The notes under the pieces: generated by a model
The model's input: only the letters and a program-made list of their open reading frames with translations
The model's database searches: none
What the model was told of the DNA's origin: nothing
Position numbers and translations under genes: made by a program
Shown here: one piece after another, positions 1,252-62,021 of the stretch
How positions within the stretch are numbered: position 1 is the first letter of the stretch
Layout: every line of letters starts with the position of its first letter
NCBI RefSeq assembly: GCF_003790525.1
Contig: NZ_CP033635.1
Direction: 5' to 3' (one strand)
Length of the DNA: 64,000 nucleotides
From: Escherichia coli
GTDB taxonomy: Bacteria > Pseudomonadota > Gammaproteobacteria > Enterobacterales > Enterobacteriaceae

Positions 1252-4200
1252 TTAGTCAAACTCCAGTTCCACCTGCTCCGAACCAATGAGGCCACGGAGA
1301 TCGTTTAATAAACGATCGCTCGGAGAGACACGCCACGTCGCGCCAAAACGCAACCGCGCGCGTGCATCCGCCCTCTGATAGTAGAGATGTACTGGAATTG
1401 TCCCAGAGCGGTGGGGTTCCAGAGACTGACGGAGTCGGTTTAAAAGCTGGTCATCAATTTGCCTGTCCGTCAGCGAGATAGCAAGCCCGCGAGCATATTT
1501 TTCCCGGGCTTCGTCAATATCCATCACTTCGCGAGCGGTCATTTTAAGCCCACCGCTGAAGTCATCAAAGCTGACCTGTCCGCTGACGATAAGTATGCGG
1601 TCTTTTTCCAGCAATTGCTGGTATTTATCCAGGGCGTCAGTAAACAACATCACTTCCAGCCGCCCGGAACGGTCATCCAGCGTGCAGATACCGATACGAT
1701 TGCCGCGCTTGGTGACCATAACCCGCGCAGCAACAACGAGCCCCGCAGCCGTGATGACTTTACCACGTTCTGTCGGGTGCATGTCTTTCAGCCTTATGCC
1801 TCCGACATAACGCTCAATCTCTTTTAAATACTGGTTGATAGGGTGTCCCGTCAGGTACAGACCTAACGTTTCACGTTCCCCATCTAATACCACCTGCTCC
1901 GGCCACGGTTGGCAGCTGGCGTAGGATTGTTCAATTTGTTCCGGCTCTTCTGCCAGCACGCCGAACATATCGGCCTGACCGATGGCTTCCGCTTTTGCGT
2001 GTTGATCAGCCGCTTTTAACGCATCGCCCAGCGAGTTCATCAACGCCGCGCGGTGTGGCCCAAGACGGTCAAACGCCCCGGACATGATCAATTTTTCCAG
2101 CACTCGCCGGTTTAACTTTTTGGTGTCGGTTCGGGCGCAGAGATCAAACAGTTCGCGGAAGTAGCCGCCTTTATTACGGGCTTCGATGATGGCCTCAATC
2201 GGACCTTCACCGACCCCTTTGATCGCGCCAATACCATACACGATTTCGCCGTCGTCGTTGACGTGGAAATGGTAAAGACCGGAGTTTATATCTGGTGGCA
2301 GGATTTTCAGCCCCATCCGCCAGCACTCATCCACCAGGCCCACCACCTTCTCGGTGTTGTCCATATCGGCGGTCATTACCGCCGCCATAAACTCCGCCGG
2401 ATAGTGCGCTTTCAGCCATAACGTTTGATATGACACCAAAGCATAGGCCGCAGAGTGCGATTTGTTAAATCCGTAACCCGCGAATTTCTCCACCAGGTCG
2501 AAGATTTTCATCGCCAGTTCGGCGTTAATTCCGTTCTTTTCTGCACCTTCAGCAAATACAGAACGCTGCTTAGCCATCTCTTCCGGCTTTTTCTTACCCA
2601 TCGCACGACGCAGCATATCCGCGCCACCGAGGGTATAACCAGAAAGCACCTGGGCAATCTGCATGACCTGTTCCTGATACAGGATGATGCCGTAGGTTGG
2701 CTCCAGTACCGGTTTCAGGCTTTCATGCTGCCACTGCACGTCCGGATAGGAGATCTCTTCGCGACCATGTTTACGGTCGATAAAGTTATCCACCATCCCT
2801 GACTGCAACGGACCAGGGCGGAACAGTGCCACCAGTGCGATCATATCTTCGAAGCAGTCAGGTTGCAGACGCTTGATCAGGTCCTTCATGCCGCGCGATT
2901 CAAGCTGGAATACCGCCGTGGTTTCCGAGCGTTGCAGCATGTCGAAGCTTTTCTTGTCATCCAGCGGGATCGCGGCGATATCCAGCGGCGGCTCGCCATT
3001 CTTCGCCCGCCGCTTGTTGATCATCTCCAGCGCCCAGTTGATGATGGTGAGCGTACGCAAACCGAGGAAGTCGAACTTCACCAGCCCGGCGTATTCAACG
3101 TCGCTTTTATCAAACTGGGTGACCGGATGTTTGCCCTCTTCATCGCAGTAAAGCGGCGCAAAATCGGTAATTTTGGTCGGTGCGATAACCACCCCACCGG
3201 CGTGCTTACCGGCGTTACGGGTGACCCCTTCCAGTTTGCGCGCCATGTCGATCAGCGCCTTAACTTCTTCATCCGCTTCGTAGATTTCCGGCAGCTGCGG
3301 CTCGGCTTCAAACGCTTTCGCCAGCGTCATCCCCGGATCGGGCGGGATCAGTTTCGAGATACGATCGACAAAGCCGTACGGATGGCCCAGCACGCGGCCT
3401 ACGTCGCGGATCACCGCTTTCGCCGCCATCGTACCGAAGGTGATAATCTGCGATACCGCATCGCGACCGTACATGTCCGCCACATGTTCGATAACCTGGT
3501 CGCGTTTCTCCATACAGAAGTCAACGTCGAAGTCAGGCATGGAGACACGTTCCGGGTTAAGGAAACGTTCGAACAGCAGGTCAAATTCCAGCGGATCGAG
3601 GTCGGTGATTTTCAGCGCGTAGGCCACCAGTGAACCCGCACCGGAGCCACGGCCTGGCCCTACCGGTACGCCGTTATCTTTCGACCACTGGATAAATTCC
3701 ATAACGATGAGGAAGTAACCCGGGAAGCCCATCTGGTTGATAACCTGAAGTTCAGTCTCCAGACGCTCGTCATATTCCGGGCGGCGCTTCAGACGTTCTT
3801 CCTCGTCAGGGAATAAAAAGGCCAGACGCTCTTCCAGGCCTTCTTTTGCACGCTTGACCAGATAATCTTCGGTGCTCATGTCCCCGGTCGGGAATTGCGG
3901 CAAGAAGTATTCACCCAGACGCACAGTTACGTTACAACGTTTGGCTATCTCAACGGTGTTGGCAAGGGCTTCGGGAATGTCGGCAAAAAGCTCGCACATC
4001 TCCTCTTCGCTACGCATATATTGCTGCGGCGAATAGTTACGCGGGCGTTTAGGATCGTCGAGGGTAAAGCCGTCGTGGATCGCGACGCGGATTTCGTGTG
4101 CGTCAAAGTCGCTGCTGTCGATAAAGCGCACGTCGTTGGTCGCCACAACGGGCAAACCGCGTGATTCCGCCAGTTCCACCGCAGCGTGCAGATAGCTTTC

Positions 4201-60735: not shown

Positions 60736-60816
60736 TATTTAACTGGCGCTACGGCTGATGGCGCCAGTTATTCATTGCCACGTCATCTGTAAGCAATTAT
60801 TCATATCGTAGACAAC

Positions 60817-61032
60817 TTAGTTAGAGTTAATTAGCTTATCAATCTCTGCAAGAGATAAAGCTGTCACCTCTGCAACGTCTTCCCGAGACATTCCTTTACT
60901 CAGAAGACGCTGGGCCAGTCTTACCTTCTGGAGTCCCTCTTTATATCCCTTCTGAAATCCCTTCTGAAATCCCTTCTCTTCAAACCACTGCGCCAACGTC
61001 TGCCAGGTTTCTCTCCGTGTCTTTATTTCCAT
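60817..61032 (-). CDS. Small ORF (71 aa) paralogous to the C-terminal tail of YadD/RpnC; candidate free-standing RpnS-like protein
   Basis: ATG at 61032 preceded by AAGGGA; MEIKTRRETWQTLAQWFEEKG-(GFQK repeats)-LLSKGMSREDVAEVTALSLAEIDKLINSN parallels the yadD C-terminus ...TLAQWFEEKG-(RQEV repeats)-FLSKGMSREDVAEMANLPLAEVDKLIS; DNA of the two 3-prime ends is clearly homologous. Expression is unproven. Confidence 0.45.
   Translation of the reverse strand: MEIKTRRETWQTLAQWFEEKGFQKGFQKGYKEGLQKVRLAQRLLSKGMSREDVAEVTALSLAEIDKLINSN
60946..60978. repeat. Short tandem 12-nt repeat inside the 71-codon ORF
   Basis: CCCTTCTGAAAT repeated in tandem, encoding GFQKGFQKG on the minus strand. Confidence 0.5.
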
Positions 61033-61100
61033 ATGTTCCCTTAATTATCTGGTCAGTTAACAATAACAATTATCTGGCTATAACTGATAATGCAGATAAC

Positions 61101-62021
61101 TTAGCTAATCAGCTTATCAACCTCAGCAAGAGGTAAATTTGCCATCTCTGCAACGTCTTCCCGAGACATCCCTTTACTCAGAAAACGCAGGGCGAATTCC
61201 TGTCTTACTTCCTGTCTAACCTCTTGTATTACCTCCTGTCTTACCTCCTGCCTTTCCTCCTGTCTTCCCTTCTCTTCAAACCACTGCGCCAGCGTCATCA
61301 TAGACTCCCCTCCCGTTTCCCTGTCTCTCAGCACACCATAAAACAAATCCGCTTGTTCAGTATGACCGCGTTGCAGCATATAGTTTTGCATGGCAACTAA
61401 CTGACTTCCGCTAGTGTACCCTTCGTCTATCAGCGTGACCAGTTGCTCCAGCAATAACATTAAGTCGCGTTGGCGAATATGTTTTTGCAGCAGTTCGAGA
61501 ATCGCAATCCGCCGATGTTGCATGATTTCGTCATCCGGTGTGATAGTGATATCCACCAGCGGGAAAGGACTGTTATAGACGCGTCGCGCCAGCTCCGGCG
61601 AGTAAAACATATCAAACCAGCACATTGAGAGTGGATAAGGCGTGGCCTCGCCCTGATAAAACAAAATCGGCACCACCAGCGGCAGCTTATCGTGATCTGC
61701 CTCCAGATGCCGGTGCATGGCAGCAATAGAATAACGCATCATGCGAAAGGCCATTTTTTTGTCCGGCTTGCTTTGGTGTTCAATTACAACATGTAGATAG
61801 CCCGTATTACCCTGCATTTGCACGGAATAGAGCACGTCAGTGCTGTGCCCTTTCAGGCTTTCTTCAATAAAACTCCCCGACTCAAGATGCAGCGTGTCGA
61901 GGTCACACAGTTCGCGTAGTTCCGCTGGCAAATGGATATCCAGAAAGTCACGAGCCGTTTCCGCATGCATTAAAAATTGTTTAAACACCGCATCATGCGG
62001 TGTGGTACTCGGTGCATCCAT
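61101..62021 (-). CDS. yadD: Rpn-family (YhgA-like, PD-(D/E)xK) recombination-promoting nuclease
   Basis: 306-aa ORF, MDAPSTTPHDAVFKQFLMHAETARDFLDIHLPAELRELCDLDTLHLESGSFIEE..., recognised as YadD (RpnC); AGGGA Shine-Dalgarno before ATG at 62021; located between panC and panD. Confidence 0.85.
   Translation of the reverse strand: MDAPSTTPHDAVFKQFLMHAETARDFLDIHLPAELRELCDLDTLHLESGSFIEESLKGHSTDVLYSVQMQGNTGYLHVVIEHQSKPDKKMAFRMMRYSIAAMHRHLEADHDKLPLVVPILFYQGEATPYPLSMCWFDMFYSPELARRVYNSPFPLVDITITPDDEIMQHRRIAILELLQKHIRQRDLMLLLEQLVTLIDEGYTSGSQLVAMQNYMLQRGHTEQADLFYGVLRDRETGGESMMTLAQWFEEKGRQEERQEVRQEVIQEVRQEVRQEFALRFLSKGMSREDVAEMANLPLAEVDKLIS
61196..61272. repeat. Imperfect 12-nt tandem repeats inside the yadD 3-prime region
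   Basis: About six imperfect copies of CCTCCTGTCTTA-like units, encoding RQEERQEVRQEVIQEVRQEVRQE on the minus strand. Confidence 0.6.

Follow-up and report, generated by a model that had tools for sequence, protein, structure and literature searches.

rpnCSs of Escherichia coli is a maintained, free-standing paralogue of the RpnC tail with a probably different specificity

The 71-codon open reading frame (ORF) that follows the Rpn toxin gene rpnC (yadD) in Escherichia coli is rpnCSs, an already known gene that was described and named by Zhong et al., 2023 (PNAS 120:e2307382120; PMC10400941), and it shows no structural difference from the published gene. We analyzed it in a 64,000-nt stretch of E. 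coli DNA (contig NZ_CP033635.1 of assembly GCF_003790525.1), hereafter called the window. The explanation that we favor, with moderate confidence, is that rpnCSs is a duplicated and maintained paralogue of the RpnC antitoxin domain, which probably has another specificity and recombines with the rpnC 3′ end. Added here beyond the 2023 paper are the frequency of rpnCSs, a selection analysis, and a comparison of both linkers.

Rpn proteins are toxic nucleases, and translation from an internal start additionally yields their C-terminal domain as a separate antitoxin, RpnS; the RpnS antitoxins work through binding of the shared C-terminal domain (PMC10400941). The preliminary description of this DNA had named the toxic nucleases and the internally started RpnS, and had proposed that the small ORF is a separately encoded RpnS-like copy derived from a partial duplication. 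The former matches the published work, and the latter is what that work describes as rpnCSs (PMC10400941). According to Zhong et al., rpnCSs groups with RpnCS, its alleles differ in the number of 4-aa repeats, and it has been lost either by deletion or by fusion with the N-terminal region of rpnC (PMC10400941). In K-12, initiation inside rpnC was reported and RpnCS was detected (PMC10400941); K-12, which does not carry rpnCSs, was also the strain used for ribosome profiling and tagging.

Results

Organization of the rpnC-rpnCSs locus

The 306-aa yadD/RpnC ORF and the 71-codon ORF were found one after the other on the minus strand, as had been described, and the Shine-Dalgarno (SD) sequence AAGGGA that had been assigned to the latter is present at 61042-61037, 4 nt before the ATG (Table 1). 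In E. coli SMS-3-5, which is 100% identical to the window, RefSeq names the two genes rpnC and "hypothetical protein" (WP_000404130.1, the 71-aa ORF). Being a separate ORF on the same strand, directly downstream of the rpn gene with the most similar tail, rpnCSs belongs to the rpnSs genes.

Table 1. Features of the panC-panD region in the window.
Feature	Position	Strand	Source or remark
rpnC (yadD), full-length RpnCL, 306 aa; PD-(D/E)XK YhgA-like nuclease domain (N-terminal) and C-terminal tail	61101..62021	-	ORF list; RefSeq annotation rpnC
Putative internal ribosome-binding site GGAGGGGAG and ATGATG start (Met241/242) of nested RpnCS, predicted 66 aa	61296..61313	-	Sequence; internal initiation known from K-12
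12-nt tandem repeats of rpnC (RQEV-type 4-aa repeats of the tail helix; linker, 27 aa)	61198..61270	-	TRF period 12, 6.1 copies
Spacer from rpnC stop to rpnCSs start, 68 nt; contains diverged 3′-flank copy, SD AAGGGA (61037-61042), and 25-nt tandem duplication	61033..61100	-	
25-nt tandem duplication AATTATCTGG	61043 and 61068 (+ strand coordinates)		Inside the rpnC-rpnCSs spacer
rpnCSs, 71 aa, free-standing paralogue of RpnC tail / RpnCS (HTH_Rpn_C)	60817..61032	-	ORF list, BLASTP
12-nt tandem repeats of rpnCSs (FQKG-type 4-aa repeats; linker, 21 aa)	60945..60977	-	TRF period 12, 2.8 copies, 100% matches
GC-rich perfect 10-bp inverted repeat between the convergent panC and rpnCSs stops	60740..60770	.	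Repeat search; also in centroid fold
panC, left boundary of the inserted segment	59884..60735	+	ORF list, RefSeq
panD, right boundary of the inserted segment	62295..62675	+	ORF list, RefSeq

A simple promoter and terminator scan of the spacer on the gene's strand found neither a sigma-70-like site nor a terminator, and the RNA fold of the spacer was unexceptional (z = -0.38). We infer that rpnCSs is transcribed by read-through from rpnC or rpnCS. The inverted repeat at 60740..60770 was not called as a terminator by the simple scan because its minus strand has no T run; this hairpin is probably the shared transcript end of panC and rpnCSs.

The locus had also been regarded as an inserted selfish element that interrupts the panC and panD genes. 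The interruption was borne out by comparison of the junctions: roughly 65 other species of Enterobacteriaceae have 35-290 bp between panC and panD, and this interval is about 1.2-1.56 kb wherever it houses an rpn gene. Escherichia, Pseudocitrobacter, and S. enterica diarizonae share a distance of 274 nt between the rpn start and panD. By this comparison, the rpn segment is an insertion relative to most Enterobacteriaceae. Zhong et al., however, found no evidence of autonomous transposition for rpn genes (PMC10400941). A repeat search detected no inverted repeats bracketing the panC-panD insert, the sole perfect one being the 10-bp hairpin by panC, and the combination of terminal inverted repeats and target-site duplication that marks an insertion sequence or autonomous transposon was not found.

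Duplication of the rpnC 3′ end

The claim that the 71-codon ORF repeats the architecture of the YadD C-terminus was supported by BLASTP, in which the small ORF shared 40 identities over 72 positions with RpnC residues 235-306 (56% aa identity, E = 6e-20). Common to both tails are the TLAQWFEEKG helix start and the SKGMSREDVAE...DKLI helix-turn-helix (HTH)-like end. At the DNA level, the 3′ ends form a 91-nt direct repeat with 87% identity (60825-60915 versus 61103-61193), and the part encoding the linker and TLAQWFEEKG forms an 86-nt repeat with 73% identity. In local alignment, the homology was unbroken from GACGCTGGCGCAG (TLAQ) to the last codons of both copies, in agreement with the earlier interpretation of the 3′-end homology as a partial duplication, and about 50 nt past each stop codon were weakly homologous (shuffle p about 0.0125). 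Alignment with shuffles gave no significant homology between the rpnCSs leader and the rpnC region upstream of TLAQ.

These alignments show that rpnCSs arose via tandem duplication of the rpnC 3′ end. The duplicated unit starts with the TLAQWFEEKG codons, includes the stop codon, and reaches some 50 nt into the 3′ flank; rpnCSs acquired its own leader, ribosome-binding site, and ATG after the duplication.

Domain assignment and predicted fold

The 306-aa ORF matched Pfam Transposase_31 (PF04754; residues 7-207, E = 2.8e-87) and NCBIfam TIGR01784 (279.7 bits; cutoff, 52.1). The 71-aa ORF has no YhgA-like nuclease domain and thus is not an RpnL. It matched positions 212-273 of TIGR01784 with E = 5e-11, which is under the whole-protein cutoff, as expected of a fragment, and it has a precomputed match, marked weak, to Pfam HTH_Rpn_C (PF27070). 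A profile search of rpnCSs with a Pfam set that did not include the HTH_Rpn_C model gave no match at E ≤ 0.001 and only noise, and PADLOC models matched neither the RpnC nor the rpnCSs protein. Like an RpnS, rpnCSs combines homology to an Rpn tail with variable 4-aa (12-nt) repeats early in a predicted long first helix; the repeats begin 21 residues past Met1 in rpnCSs and 8-20 residues in for RpnS proteins (PMC10400941).

The AlphaFold model of rpnCSs (mean pLDDT, 72.5) has helices at residues 5-45, 50-57, and 61-70, with pLDDT of 79-91 over residues 31-70 and only 50-57 in the N-terminal half of the repeat helix. The predicted helices are consistent with the published crystal structure of RpnAS, which has three helices, the first one long (PMC10400941). 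A Foldseek search of the model against the PDB gave nothing at E < 0.5; it returned nonsignificant matches to TrpR, resolvase, and HTH proteins and did not retrieve RpnAS. Among PDB sequences, phmmer with rpnCSs found only a designed repeat protein of HTH-like units and not RpnAS, and no solved relative of RpnC was found by sequence. Taken at face value, the model suggests that RpnCSs has an RpnS-like shape, namely a long helix that carries the 4-aa repeats and, after it, two short HTH-like helices. It may oligomerize via the long helix, as published for RpnAS, and oligomerization of this kind would mean that RpnCSs binds an Rpn tail with a matching repeat helix.

Repeat linkers of rpnCSs and the adjacent RpnC tail

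In the window, the linker of rpnCSs is of the FQKG/YKEG type and 21 aa long, whereas that of the RpnC tail (tail 1) is of the RQEV type and 27 aa long. We compared the linkers of 19 distinct pairs of tail 1 and rpnCSs. The sequence differed in all 19, the lengths were equal in only one pair, where random pairing predicts 2.1, and in six pairs, this window included, the difference in length was not a multiple of 4. The same rpnCSs allele adjoins RpnC of either 306 or 310 aa, which differ in the number of tail repeats. One extra 4-aa repeat is known to abolish the inhibition of RpnCL by RpnCS (Zhong et al., Fig. 4D; PMC10400941), a specificity rule that was tested on RpnC of K-12 with just one +1 repeat change rather than on the linker types compared here. 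The linker mismatch, together with this repeat-number rule, argues that rpnCSs is probably not a second cognate antitoxin of the neighboring RpnC.

The opposite proposal, put forward earlier as a "modulator of RpnC", is that rpnCSs provides an extra dose of cognate antitoxin, which binds and neutralizes the RpnCL encoded just upstream. It would account for the helix start and HTH-like end that rpnCSs has in common with the RpnC tail, and it fits the binding of RpnS proteins to the shared C-terminal domain (PMC10400941); moreover, the two genes share a strand and the scan found no terminator in the spacer that separates them, which makes co-expression plausible. Nevertheless, this proposal is unlikely, given linkers that are unlike in sequence in every pair and in length in 18 of the 19, equal lengths that are no commoner than by random pairing, a single rpnCSs allele beside tails of differing repeat number, and the loss of inhibition upon addition of one repeat. 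Since the lengths of the 21- and 27-aa linkers are not a whole number of 4-aa repeats apart, RpnCL here would have as its cognate antitoxin the nested RpnCS from the internal start at 61301 rather than rpnCSs, and the role of rpnCSs here may be that of a second RpnS with a different specificity.

Exchange of segments between the tails

Two tails are present also in E. marmotae and in a further lineage carrying rpnCSs (L022/L040), and one tail is present in representatives of E. albertii and E. whittamii. The rpnCSs of ST131 has a last helix of the tail-1 type. In K-12, the single tail matched tail-1 alleles exactly up to GAGATTGAT, and past this point it has rpnCSs-type last codons and a flank as in E. 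marmotae, including a shared 12-nt deletion. In the protein database, both head types occur with all linker and C-terminus types. These mosaic alleles show that the tail copies exchange segments and that the single tail of K-12 is a tail-1/tail-2 chimera.

We also considered the single tail of K-12 as the ancestral state before duplication. This was disfavored relative to fusion because the match to tail 1 up to GAGATTGAT gives way to an end and flank like those of rpnCSs in E. marmotae, although the polarity is not proven because the representatives of E. albertii and E. whittamii are one-tailed. By sequence comparison, then, the rpnC 3′ end recombines with rpnCSs, and exchange between them generates mosaic tails; in the favored scheme, unequal crossover fuses both copies into a single tail, as in K-12.

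Variable C-terminal modules occur as orphans downstream of cdiA and rhs, where each begins with a conserved junction motif and can be transferred into the main gene by recombination. They are an analogy only: these modules carry toxin domains and their own immunity genes, whereas in rpnCSs the module is the antitoxin/oligomerization domain itself with its own translation start. Likened to such displaced modules or to silent cassettes, rpnCSs might matter mainly as DNA, that is, as a stored alternative tail cassette whose recombination with the rpnC 3′ end switches or reshuffles the toxin/antitoxin specificity helix, its protein being incidental. The mosaic alleles of ST131 and K-12, the rpnCSs heads joined to K-12-type linkers and RpnCS heads joined to rpnCSs-type linkers and ends in the protein database, and the start of the homology at the conserved TLAQWFEEKG junction all point in this direction, and Zhong et al. 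speculated that RpnL itself may promote recombination of tails (PMC10400941). However, ordinary homologous recombination between strains could yield mosaics without selected switching, the analogous YpaA/RpnESs is translated (PMC10400941), and a silent copy needs no conserved SD, ATG, or leader and no depletion of nonsynonymous changes, which makes the reading as a DNA cassette quite improbable.

Distribution and maintenance of rpnCSs

The rpnC-rpnCSs junction was found in 1555 of 5426 complete E. coli genomes (~29%), in every case on the chromosome, and rpnCSs is also present in E. marmotae. Across the loci of both species, the spacer is constant at 68 nt, and the SD TAAGGGAAC and the ATG are kept. 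Among 34 loci carrying the rpnCSs start in E. coli, E. marmotae, and related lineages, a small and partly hand-picked sample beside the 1555 carrier genomes in all, the ORF was intact in 33, the exception being an IS3 insertion. Alleles in the protein database are 57-77 aa long, with in-frame length steps of 4 or 2 aa. For the non-repeat codons of rpnCSs, the ratio of nonsynonymous to synonymous rates was 0.33 (binomial p = 7e-4), and pairwise pN/pS was 0.47 for rpnCSs and 0.27 for tail 1; on short, recombining segments such values are rough estimates. One exact rpnCSs protein sequence was listed in 2637 blocks of an assembly collection. Depending on the genome, PGAP labels the same ORF "hypothetical", "transposase", "RpnC/YadD family protein", or pseudogene, and the copies tagged as pseudogenes are in fact full-length with the same MEIKTRRET leader start.

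These results show that ~29% of the complete E. coli genomes, along with E. marmotae, maintain rpnCSs as a predicted protein-coding gene. That it is a functionless pseudogene, the "decaying remnant" of a partial duplication envisaged in the preliminary description, is largely refuted and very unlikely: the pseudo or partial tags of PGAP in several genomes (often "incomplete; missing N-terminus"), the absence of rpnCSs from ~71% of complete E. coli genomes, its destruction by IS insertion or removal by fusion in some lineages, and its higher pairwise pN/pS than that of tail 1 would fit decay, but they are set against the full-length tagged copies, the 33 intact loci, length changes that are all in frame, the conserved SD and ATG, the depletion of nonsynonymous changes, and the recurrence of one exact protein.

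Some matches to rpnCSs were in records labelled as plasmids. These records are 0.15-4.9 Mb long, all typed as non-mobilizable and most with a chromosomal rpnC, and we take them to be mislabelled chromosomal pieces. A tblastn search of 50,697 phage records with the rpnCSs protein gave no match and hence no sign of a phage-borne mimic at that sensitivity.

Discussion

The closest counterpart of rpnCSs is ypaA (rpnESs), which lies downstream of rpnE (yfaD) in K-12 and whose translation was shown by tagging (PMC10400941). Like rpnCSs, it is a free-standing, same-strand duplicate of the tail of its cis Rpn protein, and its repeat number differs from that of the cis tail, with one extra KLEG relative to RpnE. 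Unlike rpnCSs, it has an independent origin, according to Zhong et al. (Fig. S3C). Its junction is also tighter, with a 15-nt spacer and the internal SD and ATG copied along with the tail, whereas the rpnCSs spacer measures 68 nt and the gene has a distinct leader of 11 codons, MEIKTRRETWQ. The nested RpnAS, RpnBS, and RpnCS resemble rpnCSs in having HTH_Rpn_C, a length of ~60-70 aa, and, as predicted for rpnCSs, a long helix that bears the repeats, with an HTH-like end behind it; in contrast to them, rpnCSs is a separate gene, and its linker and the linker of the toxin beside it have diverged. As a separate gene, it is not forced to co-vary with the toxin tail.

A bolder proposal is a two-cassette specificity system, in which rpnCSs is deliberately mismatched with the adjacent tail so that there is no RpnS cross-talk, and recombination, possibly promoted by RpnC itself, swaps the pairing helix. 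We regard this proposal as doubtful. If true, such swapping could serve the escape from a phage countermeasure, and, as YpaA is one repeat out of register with RpnE, mismatch would be general for rpnSs genes.

As a discovery the locus is not new, and its practical value lies mainly in annotation, given the inconsistent PGAP labels. The Rpn systems are a recently recognized kind of toxin-antitoxin and antiphage defense, in which the antitoxin is nested in the toxin gene. Through this nesting, toxin and antitoxin are bound to "obligatory co-evolution", which a free-standing rpnCSs breaks, and for this reason the binding partner of RpnCSs is a real question after the 2023 paper. Our analysis narrows that question to a gene that is maintained, is unmatched to the tail of its neighbor, and exchanges sequence with that tail.

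Duplication of the rpnC tail

This region of the window is 100% identical to Escherichia coli SMS-3-5 (NC_010498.1). The rpnCSs protein aligned with residues 235-306 of RpnC with 40 identities in 72 positions (E=6e-20). At the DNA level, the 3' ends of the two genes form a 91-nt direct repeat of 87% identity, and the parts coding for the linker and TLAQWFEEKG form an 86-nt repeat of 73% identity. In local alignment, the homology was continuous between the TLAQ codons and the last codons. About 50 nt of the 3' flanks were weakly homologous (p about 0.0125), and the 11-codon rpnCSs leader had no significant match to the rpnC sequence upstream of TLAQ. The preliminary description, made from the sequence alone, had proposed that yadD is followed by an ORF duplicating its tail, a partial duplication giving an RpnS-like gene. 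The ORF positions and both alignments bear this out in every detail. The description was also right on the positions of the AAGGGA ribosome-binding site and of GGAGG-ATGATG within rpnC.

Features of the window, with positions in nt
Feature	Position	Strand	Description
rpnC/yadD	61101..62021	minus	306 aa; RefSeq name rpnC
rpnCSs	60817..61032	minus	71 codons; RefSeq 'hypothetical protein' WP_000404130.1
rpnC-rpnCSs spacer			68 nt, between the two minus-strand ORFs
25-nt tandem duplication in spacer	61043-61077	plus (as written)	AATTATCTGG twice
t44 RNA	19749-19835	minus	Rfam gathering-score match, 83.5 bits
HtrA 5' UTR thermometer	27958-28003	minus	Rfam gathering-score match, 77 bits

Both tails contain tandem repeats with a 12-nt period; the unit is of RQEV type in rpnC (6.1 copies) and of FQKG type in rpnCSs (2.8 perfect copies). 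In the lineage of loci L022 and L040, the 25-nt spacer unit is single-copy and the spacer is shorter to match. The 306-aa protein has a YhgA-like nuclease domain (PF04754, E=2.8e-87; TIGR01784, 280 bits), and the 71-aa protein matched TIGR01784 only over the C-terminal 62 positions (E=5e-11); its precomputed match to PF27070 (HTH_Rpn_C) is marked weak. An AlphaFold model of rpnCSs, based on 45 relatives, has a long helix (residues 5-45) and two short ones (50-57 and 61-70), with pLDDT of 79-91 over residues 31-70. These predicted helices appear to fit the published description of RpnAS, and the RpnAS structure was not retrieved with rpnCSs by Foldseek or by phmmer against PDB sequences.

The portions of Zhong et al. 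(2023, PNAS 120:e2307382120; PMC10400941) drawn on here present Rpn proteins as toxin-antitoxin and antiphage systems, in which RpnS, a small C-terminal domain translated from an internal start, inhibits the toxic full-length nuclease RpnL. The downstream copy is named rpnCSs there and clusters with RpnCS, so the locus is already described and named and is not new. Those portions contain no test of the expression or function of rpnCSs, and no later study of it turned up in a search of the literature from 2023 onwards.

Distribution and genomic context

A 126-nt junction probe (spacer plus the beginning of rpnCSs) matched 1555 of 5426 complete E. coli genomes, always on the chromosome. The remaining genomes with the locus, including K-12, have a single tail and are ~310 bp shorter. 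Two tails with the identical 68-nt spacer also occur in E. marmotae and other Escherichia assemblies, and one further lineage has two tails and a spacer minus one 25-nt duplication; in E. albertii and E. whittamii, the species representative has a single tail. No relative of the rpnCSs protein was encoded in 50,697 phage records (tblastn). Matches labelled 'plasmid' were very large records (0.15-4.9 Mb), most with a chromosomal rpnC, and are taken to be mislabelled chromosomal pieces.

That the locus splits panC and panD, as first described, holds: the panC-panD gap is 35-290 bp in ~65 species representatives of genera including Citrobacter, Klebsiella, Enterobacter, Kluyvera and Raoultella. 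The two genes flank an rpn gene in Escherichia species, Pseudocitrobacter, another Enterobacteriaceae genome and Salmonella enterica subsp. diarizonae, and in most such loci the rpn gene starts 274 nt from panD. In S. enterica subsp. arizonae (locus L049, about 3082-3501; gap 419 bp), the nuclease domain is absent, and a 47-codon frame (…SEERRNIARCMLECGMTREAAAQITTLTDDEIGQIIRWR) matches the Rpn tail at the same site in subsp. diarizonae (L044); it is a tail-only remnant after deletion of the nuclease part. Separately, a repeat-like insert of ~200 bp lies between panC and single-tail rpnC in O157:H7 (L115, 2217-2515), E. albertii and Escherichia sp. E1V33 (L035 and L039). We presume that it resembles an ERIC/IRU element. 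No inverted repeats bracketing the panC-panD insert were found, which agrees with the view of Zhong et al. (2023) that rpn genes do not transpose autonomously.

A simple scan of the rpnC-rpnCSs spacer found neither a sigma-70-like site on the gene's strand nor a terminator; on this basis, co-transcription of rpnCSs with rpnC or rpnCS would be the simplest reading. The RNA fold of the spacer was unremarkable. panC and rpnCSs are convergent, and the sequence between their stop codons contains a perfect GC-rich inverted repeat of 10 bp. An ARAGORN search of the window gave no tRNA genes.

rpnCSs appears to be maintained as a gene

The preliminary description had also raised the possibility of a decaying duplication remnant. 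PGAP often tags rpnCSs 'incomplete; missing N-terminus', and its naming of the same intact ORF is inconsistent ('hypothetical protein', 'transposase', 'RpnC/YadD family protein' or a pseudogene 'missing N-terminus' in many E. coli RefSeq records, e.g. loci L004-L008 and L033). The tagged ORFs are intact with the same MEIKTRRET leader, and the tag reflects not decay but their likeness to part of a longer family. Decay is largely refuted: rpnCSs was full-length in 33 of the 34 loci having its start; allele lengths (57 to 77 aa) change in in-frame steps; the TAAGGGAAC-ATG start region is conserved between species; and the nonsynonymous/synonymous rate ratio was 0.33 over 47 non-repeat codons (21 vs 18 changes; binomial p=7e-4). 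Pairwise pN/pS was 0.47 for rpnCSs vs 0.27 for the corresponding codons of tail 1, the rpnC tail itself, and 0.25 for the nuclease domain. In the assembly collection, 2637 blocks list the exact protein of the window. These results suggest that rpnCSs is maintained by selection, which adds to the published picture.

The sole disrupted copy among the examined loci (L009, E. coli AF10, NZ_OZ546911.1) has an IS3-family element after codon 12. A protein (P0022) whose MEIQGASLQ… start is produced by IS3 insertion was present on 8 contigs. In two loci, L020 (an E. marmotae-like Logan contig) and L025 (GCA_013422875.1), rpnC is split in two ORFs and rpnCSs is intact; the L025 split is likely a sequencing or assembly error, because the adjoining panC and panD are fragmented too.

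Linker mismatch with the neighbouring rpnC tail

Inhibition is lost when RpnCS or RpnCL alone gains a single 4-aa repeat (Zhong et al., 2023). We therefore compared the linkers of both copies locus by locus between the conserved WFEEKG and LSKGM anchors. Their sequences were identical in none of 19 distinct pairs, and their lengths were equal in one (2.1 expected from random pairing). The difference was not a multiple of four in six pairs, including that of the window (27 vs 21 aa), because many rpnCSs alleles have a 2-aa deletion (VRLAQR in place of VRQEFAQR). One allele was found next to both 306- and 310-aa RpnC proteins. The analogue downstream of rpnE in K-12, YpaA/RpnESs (L116, 10396-11493, rpnE-ypaA; MTIAERLRQEGHQIGWQEGKLEGLHEQ...), has one repeat (KLEG) more than the RpnE tail (...GWQEGMHEQ...). 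Like rpnCSs, it is out of register with its cis tail, and it is the sole rpnSs whose translation is demonstrated in the cited portions of Zhong et al. (2023); its spacer, however, is only 15 nt, and the SD and ATG of the internal start are part of its duplication. Should the repeat-number rule hold generally, the nested RpnCS (Met241, 66 aa) would be the cognate antitoxin of RpnCL, and rpnCSs would not be a second dose of it. The mismatch adds to the published picture.

Exchange between the two tails

In ST131, the last helix of the rpnCSs copy is of the tail-1 type, and a 6-nt rpnCSs-specific insertion is absent. The single tail of K-12 is identical to tail-1 alleles up to GAGATTGAT, followed by rpnCSs-type final codons and 3' flank, and has a 12-nt deletion in common with the E. 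marmotae rpnCSs copy. Unequal crossover between the copies would leave such a tail, in agreement with the 'fusion' noted by Zhong et al. (2023). The protein database also holds rpnCSs leaders joined to K-12-type linkers, and RpnCS-type starts joined to rpnCSs-type linkers and ends. Ordinary between-strain recombination could contribute to these mosaics. The mosaics themselves suggest that rpnCSs recombines with its neighbour's tail, a further addition to the published picture.

Selection, linker mismatch and recombination do not make the locus itself new, and they sharpen the question of what rpnCSs does.
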